DNA of 34,440 nucleotides from Bacteriovoracia bacterium. GTDB taxonomy: Bacteria; Bdellovibrionota; Bacteriovoracia; Bacteriovoracales; Bacteriovoracaceae. Position numbers: made by a program. The stretch's first letter is position 1. The number at the start of each line of letters is the position of its first letter. Below are positions 21,001-27,000 of this stretch, piece after piece. Where the stretch lies: positions 1-34,440 of the forward strand of contig JBKHVI010000029.1 in NCBI GenBank assembly GCA_046570105.1, in the 5' to 3' direction.

Positions 21001-24000
21001 CGCTAATTGAAACTTTGAGATAATCTGTGAGCTTTGGTGCCATGGCTTCTCCTTAATTTCTTATCGGAAAAAAGCCGCTGTCACCAAAGATCTGGAGTCT
21101 CTTACTCAGGAATGCAGATCGCTCTTCAAGTCGTGCAGGGTTTGCAGCGCCTGTAAGGGCGTGAGATTCATAATATCTAGTGCCTTGAGACGCTTCTCAA
21201 GAGCAATCAAATGATCAGGAATCTCAGTCGTTGCTGGCATCTGGAAGAGTGAGAGCTGAGGAGGATCCACGTGATCCACCAGTGAGTGCTCGTGGTGTTG
21301 CTCTTCTAATTTGCCAAGAATTCCGCGGGCGCGTTTGAGAATGTCTTTAGGAAGCCCGGCCAGCTCGGCCACATGAATACCAAAACTCTGAGTGGCACCG
21401 GCCTCAATCAATTCATACATGAATTGAACTTTGCCTTTATGTTGCTCAGTTCTCACCGTGAGATTTTTGGCGGCCGGAAGGCTATCTGCCAGCTCAATCA
21501 ATTCGTGATAGTGAGTGGCAAAAAGTGTGAGAGATTTTAGTTTGGTAGCAAACCATTCAACCAGTGCCCAAGCGATCGAGAGACCATCATAAGTTGAAGT
21601 GCCGCGCCCGATCTCATCGAGGATAATTAAACTATCACTGGTGGCGTGACGAAGAATTTCTGCGGTCTCACTCATCTCCACCATAAAAGTCGATTGACCA
21701 CGAATGATATCGTCGCTCGCGCCCAGGCGACTGAAGAGATAATCACGCACGCCAAGTTCTGCTGATTGAGCAGGAACCCAAGCACCGAGTTGAGCGAGGT
21801 ATTGAATCAGCGCCACTTCACGCATGACGGTGGTTTTACCGGCCATGTTGGGACCTGTGATAAGTGCGAAAGAGCATTCGGCAGTTAAAGTCACATTATG
21901 TGTTACAAAGCGCTCTTGGATATTAGCGCGAATCAGCGGATGCCAGGCCCCTTGGATTTTTACGATGCGATCGTTGGTTATTGTCGGACGAGTAAAGCCT
22001 TCTTGTAGGGCGACCCATGCGAGTGACTGATAGACATCCATCTGGGCCAAACGTTTGGCGACATCCAGGACTACACCTGAGAGGTTCATGACTTGCGATA
22101 AGAGACCCTCAAAAATTTCGCGCTCGAGGCGTGAGAGACGCTCTTCAGCTGAAGTGATTTCAATTTCAAGTTTGGCGAGCTCTTCCGTTTGGTAGCGCTC
22201 ACCATTGGTGAGAGTTTGTTTGCGCTGAAAATGCTTGGGAGCTTTTCCAACATGTGAGTTAGAAATCTCGATGAAAAAACCTGCGAGGTTATTGGATTTC
22301 ACTTTGAGATTGGTGATACCGGTTTCTTGACGATAGCGCGCTTCAAGTGCTAAGAGTTCATCGGCCGCAGAGAGCGATAGACGTGATAGACGATCACGAT
22401 CTTTGTTCACGCCGGAGCGAATGAGGTTACCCTTATCAGCGTGAGCGCCCAATTCATCATTGATGGTTTTTTTGATTTCAATGGCGAGAGTTTGTAGAGC
22501 TTCGCGCTCTTTTTTATCCAGTGCTGGAAAGAAGCGGGAGAGGTCGGCTTTGGCGGCTGATTCTAAGGCAAAATAATGCTCAAGTGTGTTGGCGAGATTG
22601 ATCATATCTCCCGCATTGGCCTTCTTGGTGGTGGCCTTCGCCATAATGCGATCAAGGTCACGCACTTCAGCGAGCGTTTCACGCCAAGCTTTGAGGAGTT
22701 CGGGTTTCGCCATCAACGCCGCCAGCAGCTCTTGGCGCTTCGTGATCTGCGAGAGATCTTTTAATGGAGTTTGGAAAAAATGCTTCAAGTGACGAGCACC
22801 CATTGAACACTTCGTGCGGTCCATGAAACCAATCAATGAACTTGAAATTTGCGATGGATCACGAGGGAAAATCTCTAGACCTCTGAGTGTTGCCCAGGTG
22901 ACCTTAAGGCCATCGTTGCCGGCAATCAAACGGAAGGGGCGAATGTGTTGAATCTTATCCATCGACTGAGTCGAAGAGATGTACCAGCTTAAAGCGCCCA
23001 AGGGACAAAGCACGCTAGCGCGCGTTTGAATAATGCCATCACGCTTATAACCAGGAATGAGTTTTTCTAAGTAAGGTGCCGCGTGCTTCGGCTCAAACCA
23101 TTCAAGAGAAAGATGCGTTCGCAGAATATCAAGCTGAGTGAGTGTTTCTTCTAAGAAGGGAACTTTTTCCCATTGTCCGAGTGTGCTCAAAAATTCTTTG
23201 GGACGATAGACGAGGATTTTTTCCGCTACTTCTTCGGCTGAGTTAAGACTGAAGCCAAAAAAATCACCAGTGGTGAAATCGAGTAGAGTCAGAAGATAGC
23301 CGGCCTCATCCTGCCAGGCACAGCCGATATATTTATTTTCATTATTGCTAGCGCGATCCAGATCGTAAGGCACGGCCGGAGTTACAATCTGAGTCACACC
23401 TCGCTTAACGATACCTTTAACGTCTTTGGGATTTTCCAGTTGTTCGCAGATAATAACTTTCAAACCCATCTGACTGAGGCGATCAACGTAAGCCGCCGCT
23501 GCATGATGAGGAATGCCCGCCATGGGAATGGGTGTTTCACCTAGTTTTCCACGAACGGTGAGGGAGATGTTTAAGAGTCTTGCCACTTCACGGGCATCTT
23601 CAAAAAACATTTCATAGAAGTCGCCCATGCGAAAAAATAAAAGTTCCGTCGGATATTGCTTTTTGACGGCCCAATATTGTTCCATCATAGGAGTGAGTTT
23701 TACGCCTGTGGCGACCAAGTCTTTGAGAGTAGGGTTTTGCATGGGTTTATGCTCGCTTTTCCGATGGATTCAGTCATCTTAAAAACTCCCTCATGCGCGC
23801 TGCGCGATGGTACACTCAAACTATGCTTTTTAAACCACTCAAATCAACAATAGTTATTGTCTTTTTTATTCTCCTCAACGCCTGGGTTGGCTATGGCGTT
23901 TGGACCCATCGAGCGGATGTGGATTGGGGAAATGATTCGAGTGCAGTGCTAGGAAAAGCACCTACTGAAATGAAAGAGTTGGAATACTTTCACTTAGATC

Positions 24001-27000
24001 TCGGCAGGCCTGCACTCTCTTTAGTCGCCGATGAAATGCACAGTGTGGGCGATGAAGTGGCGAGCTTCGTGCGTCCGCGCGGAACATATTCTCCCGATGA
24101 TAAGCGTGGCACTCTTCGCTATGAGGGACAACAAGCCGAGTACGTGAAAGCACGCGACACACTCAAACTTTTAGGGGCCGTGCAATTAGCTGAAGAGAAT
24201 TCCTCTTACCAGGCCGAAGAGCTGACGTATTACCTCAAAAAAGATTTGGTGGTGGGTAAGCGCGATGTGAAGGTCAAACATACTTTGCAAAAAACTGGCC
24301 AGGTAGTGAACATCACCTCCTTGAGTTTTAAGGCGCGACCCAAGCAAGACTGGGCAAGCTTTAAAGGCGAAGTCGATGGCGTAGTTACGCCGAAATTTAA
24401 GTTCCAGGCGCCCTTAGTTTTCCGCTCTCAAGAGATGGAATTAACGGGTAAAGAGGGACTGATCCAACTTAAGCATCAGGTCTATGTTAAGCGGGGAGAA
24501 ATGCAGATAACTGCCCGAAATGGTGACATTTTTCTTGAGCAGGCAAACAAAAAGCTCAAGTATTTCATTCTGAATGACGATGTGAAGGTGAAGGAAAACC
24601 TCGTGGATTCGAAGGGTCAGCCGCTCAAGCGTGAGGCCTATGCCGAAAGACTCGAAGGTTTTGGACAAGACCGTATGGTGCTCTCAGGAGCACCTCGTGT
24701 GTTGCAAGGAAAAGACGTGATCAAAGGCTATCGAATAACCATGCGTGAAAAAATGGAATTTATCGAAGTCGAAGATGCCATGTCAGATGTTCAAGTCAAA
24801 GAAGACGAGAGCAAAGATGCGAAGGAGCGCCGCTAATGGAAATGATGACAGCAACAGGTTTGAAAAAAACCTATAACGGCAGGACAGTAGTGAAGAACGT
24901 CGGTCTTGAAGTCAAACAAGGTGAAGTGGTGGGATTGCTTGGCCCTAATGGTGCAGGTAAGACAACTTCATTTTATATGATTGTCGGACTGGTTCGCGCT
25001 GACGAAGGAAAAATCCTTTTGGGCGATAACGATGTTACGTTGTTTCCTCTGCACGAGAGAGCTCGTCGCGGAATTGGCTATCTTCCTCAGGAAGCCAGTA
25101 TTTTTCGTGAACTCTCAGTAGAAGAAAATATTATGTCGGTTCTCGAAATTCGTGATCTCTCAAAACAAGAGCGCGTGAATATCTTGAACGAGTTGATTGC
25201 CGATTTTGGTTTGGATCATATTCGTAAATCAAAAGGCCGTGAGTTATCAGGTGGTGAGCGTCGTCGTGTGGAAATTGCGCGAGCACTGGCCCTCTCACCG
25301 AAGTTTGTATTGTTGGATGAGCCATTTGCTGGTGTAGATCCTTTGGCGGTCGCAGATATCCAAGGAATCATTCGCCAACTTAAAGAGCGTGGCATTGGTG
25401 TCTTGATTACCGACCACCAGGTGCGTGAGACGTTAGGAATTGTTGACCGAGCTTATATTATGAATCGGGGAGAACTCCTAGTGAGTGGAACTCCGGATGA
25501 AATTGTGAAAGACGAGACAGCGCGCAAGTTCTACTTGGGCGAAGAATTTAAGATGTAGGAGCCTTTATGGCCGTAAAGATGTCCTTAGGTTTAAAGCAGA
25601 CGCAAAGCTTGATGATGACGCCGCAATTACAGCAGGCGATCAAGCTTCTGACTTTAACCCATTTAGAGATGACCAATCTGATTGCCCAAGAGATGGTGGA
25701 AAATCCCATGCTCGAAGAGACAGATGGTGAGTCGGCATCTGAGGCCAATGAAGAACCAAGTAAAGAGCAAATCGAACAACAAGAAGCGACCACCCAGGAT
25801 TTCCAAGGTGGCGAGCTGATTGAAGGTACTCGCCAAGATTTTGATTGGGAGTCCTACGCCGATTCATTTAATTCAACTTCTTCAACAGCTCCCAACACTC
25901 GCGAGGTCGGCGGCGCTGATGATATGCCCAGCTATGAGAATATGGTCTCCAAAGGCCAGTCTCTCCACGAGCATCTTGAGTGGCAGCTACGCATGGAGAG
26001 TTTGTCGATTGAAGAACTGGATTTTGCTATCGCGCTCATTCAAGACATTAACGACGATGGTTATTTGACGAGCCCACTCGATGAACTTATTGCACGCACA
26101 AAGCTTGATCGCGATGAAGCGGAAAATATTCTTGCGATGGTGCAATCATTTGATCCCGTCGGTTGTGCCAGTAGCACCATTCAAGAATGTCTTTTGGCCC
26201 AAGCACGAGCACTTGAAGAGCGCTCGCCATTAGCAGAGAGAATCATTGCCGATTATCTGGAAGATCTTCAGTCGAAAGATCATGCCAAAATCGCCAAAGC
26301 GATTGGAGTAAATAAAGATCGCGTGAAAGATGCTGAACTGGTCATTATGGGTCTTCACCCGAAACCAGGACGATTGGTTTCACCAGAAGAAACTCAGTAT
26401 GTTGTTCCTGATATCTTTGTCGCCGAAGTAGGCGGAGAGTTTGTGGTGCAGGTCAATGATGAGGGCGTACCACGTCTTCGCGTATCAAATCTCTACCGTG
26501 ATCTCTTGAAGAGCAAAGAAGGCGGAGCGGAAGCACAAGACTTCGTTCAAGAGAAATTACGTTCAGCTCTTTGGCTGATTAAGAGTATTGAAAACCGCCA
26601 GAAAACAATTACCAAAGTGGCGATTGCGATCGTTCGCAGTCAGCAGGATTTCTTTAAGCGCGGTCCAGAATATTTGAAACCGATGATCTTGAAAGATATT
26701 GCAGGTGAAATCGGTATGCATGAATCAACAGTCTCACGCGTGACGACGAATAAATTTATGCACACTCCACTAGGTACGTTTGAATTGAAGTATTTCTTCA
26801 ATACCGGTATCGGTGGAAAAAACGGTGGTATCGATATTGCCGGCGAAACGTTGAAATTGAAAATTAAAGAAATGATCGCTAACGAAGATCCACGCCGTCC
26901 TCTTTCGGATCAGCGTATCTCGGAGCTCTTAAGCACAAAAGACATCATCGTCGCCCGTCGTACCGTGGCGAAGTATCGCGAGATGATGGACATCTTGACG

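Follow-up and report, generated by a model that had tools for sequence, protein, structure and literature searches.

In Escherichia coli, the genes for the lipopolysaccharide (LPS) bridge are ordered kdsC-lptC-lptA-lptB, and inhibitors of the thanatin type bind LptA at its edge contacts (LptC-LptA and LptA-LptA). The bridge is an antibiotic target, and both the number of LptA units that span the periplasm and the way in which the bridge assembles and disassembles are still being worked out in this organism. As a reference system we used the E. coli LptB2FGC-LptA-LptDE bridge with its LptC (YrbK) and LptA (YhbN) subunits (structures 3my2, 6mit chain C, and 2r19/2r1a). An LptC-LptA fusion made by engineering binds stably to LptB2FG and supports ATP-dependent transfer of LPS to LptD in vitro (PMC12065857), a monomeric LptA supports growth of E. 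coli (PMC5575297), and suppressor mutants in LptF that lack LptC are reported to build a six-protein bridge (PMC9972910, PMC4986956). Among predicted proteins, the ESM Atlas contains clusters of the form LptC-LptA(n), of 619 and 631 amino acids (aa), which belong to Acidobacteriota and Aminicenantota as judged by the cluster listing. Full-text literature searches, with subscription journals and supplements outside their scope, turned up neither a natural LptC-LptA fusion nor any paper dealing with Lpt in Bdellovibrio.

We focused on a window of 34,440 nucleotides from a contig of a member of the Bacteriovoracaceae whose genome assembly comprises 131 contigs and is 87.8% complete. The survey's finding at this locus was a single open reading frame (ORF) that joins an LptC and an LptA/OstA-type domain, and its coordinates, strand, and length could be reproduced (Table 1). 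The survey read it as one anchored LptC-LptA chain. Since the domain scans, both structure models and the fold matches, the gene order, and the conservation agree on this reading, we consider it supported, with the chain itself being predicted, and put the probability that the product is a single bitopic protein of the inner membrane serving as both LptC and LptA at roughly 80%.

Table 1. Features of the fused gene and its downstream neighbors, in window positions
Feature	Position	Strand	Description
Fused lptC-lptA gene	23793..24836	+	ORF, 347 aa from the first ATG; both Pfam domains in one frame
N-terminal hydrophobic membrane anchor (predicted), LptC-like	23847..23903	+	Residues ~19-37; sequence TIVIVFFILLNAWVGYGVW; AlphaFold helix 3-42
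LptC-type beta-jellyroll domain	23895..24377	+	Residues 35-195; PF06835 30.1 bits (Pfam cut-off 21)
LptA/OstA-type beta-jellyroll domain	24426..24755	+	Residues 212-321, fold to ~336; PF03968 (LptD_N/OstA) 50.7 bits (cut-off 20.4)
lptB, ATPase of the LPS export ABC transporter	24836..25558	+	TIGR04406 373.9 bits (cut-off 240)
rpoN (sigma-54)	25567..27024	+	Sigma54_AID, Sigma54_CBD, and Sigma54_DBD domains; conserved downstream neighbor
hpf (ribosome hibernation/sigma-54 modulation protein)	27051..27443	+	PF02482 71.8 bits

The domain limits given by the survey (LptC, residues 35-195; LptD_N/OstA, residues 212-321) stand, but its start at the first ATG is less likely than one at M11. Given that the methionine aligned with M11 is the first residue in 19 of 30 aligned homologues, the true start is probably the ATG at 23823, yielding a protein of 337 aa; the profile match on the gene begins at the same position. 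The bit scores of the survey (LptC 21.5, LptD_N 33.1) are lower than those of whole-protein Pfam scans (30.1 and 50.7) and similar to those of six-frame genome scans, where the ORF reached 36.6 bits with PF03968, 24 bits with PF06835, and 33.1 bits with TIGR03002. In the C-terminal half, the LptA model TIGR03002 matched residues 203-330 of the protein with 51.1 bits, short of its equivalog cut-off of 71.7. For the N-terminal half, the NCBIfam LptC model TIGR04409 gave 33.2 bits, below its equivalog cut-off of 38, which the Bdellovibrio homologue passes with 74 bits; with PF06835, the 12 homologues taken from other families reach 40.9-66.1 bits. A profile search against PDB sequences matched positions 75-145 of this half to E. 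coli LptA and not to LptC. We nevertheless labeled it LptC on the strength of the LptC models of Pfam and NCBIfam, together with the anchor and the position of the gene. The N-terminal helix is predicted to be an LptC-like membrane anchor. A recent internal duplication as the origin of the two halves was rejected (hhalign probability of 2.8%). The LptA-type half would work like an LptA module, yet it is no free LptA, as it forms the C-terminal part of a chain with a membrane anchor instead of a soluble protein with its own signal peptide.

The fused gene lies just upstream of lptB and rpoN, as the survey had described, and hpf comes next. The TAA stop of the fused gene overlaps the ATG of lptB by 1 base (TAATG), and lptB is translationally coupled to it. 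The gene immediately upstream of the fusion is kdsC in two other families, which resembles the E. coli order. Genes for LptF and LptG are present in the genome, as is an LptD of 841 aa with an N-terminal jellyroll, a domain that we found in all 41 family genomes scanned for it. The C-terminal LptD model PF04453 found nothing in this genome, where LptD is shown by other tests, and matched in only 2 of 14 control genomes. For LptE, PF04390 gave no match in the genome.

The fused ORF is the only match above the cut-off to PF03968 in the six-frame scan of the genome, as well as the only match to PF06835 and to TIGR03002, which bears out the survey's claim of a sole LptD_N match, within an assembly that is 87.8% complete. 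A weak PF03968 match on another contig (C2) turned out to be SufBD and was rejected. When free LptA or LptC proteins were sought with PF03968, TIGR03002, PF06835, and PF13100, nothing else exceeded the cut-offs except LptD, and a --max search of 13,097 six-frame ORFs with lineage-specific HMMs of the two halves revealed no paralogues of either. The survey's statement that no separate lptA is called therefore holds for four family models and two lineage HMMs.

To place the fusion in a wider context, we turn to its distribution across the Bdellovibrionota. The survey had restricted the fusion to the Bacteriovoracaceae. Its presence in this family was confirmed in 58 of 60 other genomes, but the restriction was not, as 139 of 165 sampled genomes of other Bdellovibrionota families match PF03968. 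The mere 3 weak matches that it had obtained from 30 genomes outside the family reflect the sensitivity limit of a single-sequence query. Both LptC and LptD_N were above the cut-off in 12 of 12 ORFs from 10 other families, and closed chromosomes of Bdellovibrio bacteriovorus strains carry the fusion as well. Judging from these sequence matches, the fusion characterizes the Bdellovibrionota as sampled, including B. bacteriovorus, and not the Bacteriovoracaceae alone. Among the 150 PF03968 matches listed over 201 genomes of the phylum (97 further matches exist), 126 are located in frames spanning 298-480 aa (median, 345), 19 in LptD-sized frames, and only 4 in frames shorter than 290 aa, 3 of which are truncated, either at the end of a contig or by masked bases. 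Longer relatives of 609-2000 aa were not found, although this search is weak evidence. One genome of another family (G183) contains a 103-aa secreted OstA-like frame.

These counts bear on whether the fused protein might be only the inner part of the bridge, with a highly diverged, free LptA-like protein sitting between it and LptD. Such a protein could be encoded in the missing part of the 87.8%-complete genome or among the 97 matches outside those listed; moreover, LptE escapes its Pfam model, indicating that components of the Lpt system in this lineage may go undetected, and a small secreted OstA-like frame does occur in G183. On the other hand, no such frame was detected in the genome itself by the six models, and short frames are nearly absent from the listed matches. 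We also found 28 short homologues, which were rejected as split genes: 25 of them are on contigs of <4 kb, and the 5 inspected start at an internal Met and have no signal peptide. The other three (P0269, P0275, and P0291) are on contigs of 8.9-40 kb. Taken together, we regard a hidden LptA as unlikely. We find it reasonably probable, if less so than the nature of the protein itself, that the whole phylum Bdellovibrionota lacks free LptA and that its LPS bridge is one covalent LptC-LptA chain docking on LptD.

To gain an idea about the architecture of the chain, we modeled the fused protein and its Bdellovibrio homologue with AlphaFold. The former (pLDDT of 81.8) is predicted to have a helix at residues 3-42 followed by 22 strands from 57 to 326, and the latter (pLDDT of 87.8) has an identical layout. 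The model thus reproduces the membrane helix plus beta-jellyroll layout of LptC, with strands starting at residue 57. The best Foldseek matches were full-length LptC chains with a transmembrane helix (6mit_C and 6mjp_C), and LptA was among the top matches as well. Superpositions with VIA-align gave, for LptC, a Z score of 12.4 with 6mit_C over model residues 56-210 and of 11.2 with 3my2 over 74-210. The LptA jellyroll superposed with 2r1a_C (Z of 13.3, rmsd of 1.7, 124 aligned residues) and, over model residues 200-330, with 7zax (Z of 10.8, residues 201-330) and 8bss (Z of 8.8), while the LptD N-domain reached a Z score of 16.1. Across the junction (residues 181-220), the pLDDT per block of 10 residues was 92, 95, 88, and 94. 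The models thus predict a single beta-jellyroll that continues unbroken through a confidently modeled junction.

The junction is also where the chain would have to be cut if it were a precursor that is processed after export into an anchored LptC and a soluble LptA. Nothing speaks directly for such processing, except the idea that a protease could release domains that elsewhere are separate proteins. Evidence against it is that both models carry the beta-sheet through the junction with high confidence and without a linker, and the junction is free of insertions and deletions in 30 family sequences, with only small ones across the phylum. Such conservation together with a continuous sheet suggests a structural joint rather than a cleavable loop, so that we regard a precursor as highly improbable.

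Within the family, one uninterrupted frame of 329-403 aa spans the whole profile in 18 of 18 loci, contradicting the internal TAA that had been noted in one relative; the stops flagged there sit at match ends. No fused gene was found, even by profile, in two Bacteriovoracaceae genomes, G034 (95% complete) and G016 (66% complete). The set of 276 homologues, with PF06835 and PF03968 in 117 of 120 listed, was reproduced exactly. A search of clusters at 50% identity gave 209 of them with E <= 1e-30, and nearly all of the 150 listed are full length (303-371 aa). Even though the source assembly is fragmented into 131 contigs, a merger of two genes by misassembly or frameshift is refuted by conservation, as the same frame recurs in the 58 of 60 family genomes, in the 18 loci checked frame by frame, and in closed Bdellovibrio chromosomes.

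We therefore return to the single anchored LptC-LptA chain as the preferred reading. In the bridge that we propose, the N-terminal helix would anchor the protein beside LptB2FG, and the LptC-type jellyroll would take LPS from LptF. The chain would continue without a flexible linker into the LptA-type jellyroll, whose free C-terminal edge would pair with the jellyroll at the N terminus of LptD. This would give a periplasmic bridge of the form LptF-[LptC-LptA]-LptD, with one LptA module, a fixed length, and a fixed 1:1:1 stoichiometry, and the LptA-LptD joint would be the only one able to open or close. We infer that the chain contacts LptF/G and LptD, transports LPS, and stays uncleaved.

If this is true, it would settle in vivo the number of LptA units that a bridge requires, one LptA module being enough, and the fusion would remove the LptC-LptA and LptA-LptA edge contacts. 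With the longer fusions seen elsewhere, separate lptC and lptA genes could perhaps be one variant among diderm bacteria. Since the fusion occurs in closed-genome strains of B. bacteriovorus, which is cultured and not pathogenic, a natural fixed-length bridge would be open to bench study. The homologues carry the database names "LptC" or "LptA"; with only one of these labels, surveys of the pathway would mistakenly count the second component as absent.

The natural LptC-LptA fusion is a variant of a known machine that is not yet described in the literature searched. Like E. coli LptC and LptA, it comprises the same two domain families, in an N-to-C order corresponding to the head-to-tail LptC-LptA contact, with the beta-jellyroll fold, a membrane helix at the N terminus of the LptC portion, and a gene position upstream of lptB-rpoN-hpf. 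In contrast to E. coli, it is one polypeptide whose LptA part lacks a separate signal peptide, it offers no free LptA N-terminal edge through which to oligomerize, so that the LptA modules are fixed at one, and it falls short of the NCBIfam equivalog cut-offs. The engineered fusion, as reported, shares the covalent LptC-LptA chain (PMC12065857), but it is a laboratory construct that avoids LptA oligomers, whereas the fused protein described here is natural, ancient, and phylum-wide, with a predicted seamless junction. As in the reported LptF suppressors, the number of separate jellyroll subunits changes while transport is kept, presumably so for the fused protein; the suppressors, however, drop a module and let LptA contact LptF directly, while the fused protein keeps and joins both. 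The ESM Atlas clusters likewise place an anchored LptC-type domain before LptA-type modules in one chain, but they carry several LptA-like modules, and the form in the Bdellovibrionota, with one, is minimal.

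The fused lptC-lptA gene of the window is a single open frame whose product matches both Pfam families above their curated cut-offs, with 30.1 bits for PF06835 (LptC, residues 35-195) and 50.7 bits for PF03968 (LptD_N/OstA, residues 212-321), bearing out the survey's finding of a one-frame fusion of LptC with an LptA/OstA domain. The NCBIfam equivalogs for LptC (33.2 bits, residues 23-166) and LptA (51.1 bits, residues 203-330) score under their strict cut-offs of 38 and 71.7, respectively. A profile search of PDB sequences matched positions 75-145 of the N-terminal half to E. 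coli LptA, not LptC, so that this half is called LptC on the strength of the family models for LptC, of its anchor, and of where the gene lies. A recent duplication as the origin of the two halves was ruled out (hhalign probability, 2.8%). Given that 19 of the 30 rows in an alignment of the window protein with 29 homologues begin at the Met matching M11, the true start is probably at 23823, where the profile match on the window also begins.

Features located in the window, in its genome (G000) and in fetched loci of other genomes
Feature	Location	Strand	Length	Remarks
Fused lptC-lptA ORF	23793..24836	+	347 aa	Open frame
lptB	Directly downstream of fused gene			TIGR04406, 373.9 bits
Repeat-containing ORF	28319..29752	-	477 aa	Signal-like N-terminus
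LptD	G000:C14:36001-38556	-	841 aa	
exbB/exbD-like (tolQ/tolR-like) genes	L075 1..1700			Bdellovibrionaceae; also flanks of L033 and L040
Small OstA/LptA-like frame	L107 1517..1825 (G183:C107)	+	103 aa	Family f23; signal-like N-terminus, short OstA/LptA-like motif

The TAA stop of the fused gene shares one base with the ATG of lptB, which is followed by rpoN and then hpf. Upstream lies mutS on the opposite strand, and a divergent mutS precedes the fused gene in the window's family. In 12 loci fetched from other families, kdsC is immediately upstream in 2; in Bdellovibrionaceae, exbB/exbD-like genes, not kdsC, take this place. The conserved core is limited to the fused gene, lptB and rpoN. Elsewhere in the window, the 477-aa ORF carries about five tandem cysteine-containing repeats of ∼33 aa each (F.YGTSARYCYKVD..GNRLGDANSTV).

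With the single protein as the query, 58 of the other 60 Bacteriovoracaceae genomes each have one match that runs across the two halves. No fused gene was found in genomes G016 (66% complete) and G034 (95% complete), also with the profile, and LptD is present in both. A single uninterrupted frame of 329-403 aa spans the profile in all 18 family loci checked; the flagged stops are not internal, and the internal stop reported earlier for one relative is therefore withdrawn. In large protein databases we obtained the same counts as before, namely, 276 homologues, with both Pfam domains in 117 of the 120 listed, at identities down to 41%. These searches also gave 209 clusters at 50% identity (E <= 1e-30); among the 150 listed, almost every one is matched over its full length (303-371 aa). 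Database names of the homologues are "LptC," "LptA," and, once, "LptC/LptA."

The survey described the fusion for Bacteriovoracaceae; its range is wider. In other families of the phylum, the family profile gives weak matches that cover just the C-terminal half, every one of them in a frame of 315-393 aa. The 12 such loci that we fetched, from 10 families, each contain an ORF (314-374 aa) whose N-terminus is hydrophobic and in which LptC (40.9-66.1 bits) and LptD_N (31.5-67 bits) are both over cut-off; the genes just downstream, judged by their N-termini only, resemble the window's lptB and rpoN. PF03968 matches occur in 172 of 201 phylum genomes, including 139 of the 165 outside the window's family. 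Among the 150 matches listed (97 further ones are not included in these counts), 126 fall in frames 298-480 aa long (median, 345), 19 in frames of at least 700 aa (LptD), 1 in a frame of 570 aa, and 4 in frames under 290 aa, 3 of which are interrupted by a contig end or masked bases. The 103-aa frame of genome G183 is the only small free-standing match among those listed; it may represent a miniature protein of LptA type or have arisen by chance. With the homologue of genome G182 as the query, whose locus has a 340-aa fused gene followed by lptB-rpoN, we found 27 loci in named genome records, including Bdellovibrio bacteriovorus s4, Bd16, and YOA24, several closed Bdellovibrio sp. chromosomes, and Pseudobdellovibrionaceae. 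A Bdellovibrio-type fused gene (67% identity) also occurs in a "Bacillota bacterium" MAG (JBLMWG010000274.1), probably through a binning error. In family f10, PF03968 was unmatched in all 14 sampled genomes and LptF/LptG (PF03739) were not found in the 5 tested; these genomes (e.g., G069, G078, G086, G093, and G107) are mostly 85-98% complete, and f10 may be a Bdellovibrionota lineage without the Lpt machine, perhaps without LPS.

Proteins under 190 aa included 28 relatives, 25 of them on contigs shorter than 4 kb. The five inspected begin at an internal Met and have no signal peptide, and we read these short relatives as truncated gene calls. A search for relatives of 609-2000 aa came up empty, which is weak evidence. 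In the ESM Atlas, both domains are present in 26 of the 30 nearest clusters, among them clusters of 619 and 631 aa in which Acidobacteriota and Aminicenantota are the commonest phyla.

The survey's observation that no separate lptA is called stands for this assembly (131 contigs, 3.02 Mb, 87.8% complete). PF03968, TIGR03002, and PF06835 yield only the fused ORF above noise, and half-specific HMMs from the family alignment, run unfiltered on 13,097 six-frame ORFs, gave no other match better than E 0.1. A weak match on contig C2 was identified as SufBD. LptF and LptG are present, on contigs C1 and C7. LptD has no PF04453 match and only 14.5 bits, under cut-off, with PF03968; it is the sole match of PF13100 (OstA_2) and is also recognised by the NCBIfam LptD models and PDB LptD sequences. 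Pfam-only surveys would call it missing. LptE was not found with PF04390, a model that matches only 3 of 14 control genomes.

An AlphaFold2 model of the window protein, built from the 30-sequence alignment (mean pLDDT, 81.8), has one long N-terminal helix (residues 3-42), followed by 22 strands between residues 57 and 326. The predicted strand layout, together with the high pLDDT at the junction (92, 95, 88, and 94 for the 10-residue blocks of 181-220), shows a single continuous sheet structure, not two linker-joined domains. A Bdellovibrio homologue, modeled from a phylum-wide alignment, has the same layout (pLDDT, 87.8). The best Foldseek matches in the PDB are LptC including its membrane helix (6mit_C and 6mjp_C), periplasmic LptC (3my2 and 4b54), and LptA/LptH (2r19 and 4uu4). 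VIA-align placed LptD N-domains on model residues 95-296 (Z 13-16), LptA 2r1a_C on 105-236 (Z 13.3, rmsd 1.7), LptC 6mit_C on 56-210 (Z 12.4), and LptA chains of thanatin complexes on 200-330 (Z 8-11). Since the repetitive jellyroll lets alignments slide, the border between the domains cannot be read from these ranges alone. The MORN-repeat and OspA-like entries among the VIA-align matches are generic to long beta-sheets.

In the full-text literature outside subscription journals and supplements, we came across no description of an LptC-LptA fusion that occurs in nature and none of Lpt in Bdellovibrio. Given that the architecture is already visible in automatic annotation and that longer related fusions occur in other phyla, we regard the fusion as another form of a machine already known, and its chief value is that it can be tested in cultured Bdellovibrio.

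The best reading is that the fused protein is a covalent LptC-LptA module. Its N-terminal anchor would stay with LptB2FG, the LptC half would receive LPS from LptF, the LPS groove would run on into the LptA half, and the free C-terminal edge of that half would pair with the N-domain of LptD; we infer these contacts, LPS transport, and a lack of cleavage. [quoted passage not shown] The fused-protein bridge would keep the four jellyroll modules of a minimal E. coli bridge, with the difference that one of the joints has become permanent.
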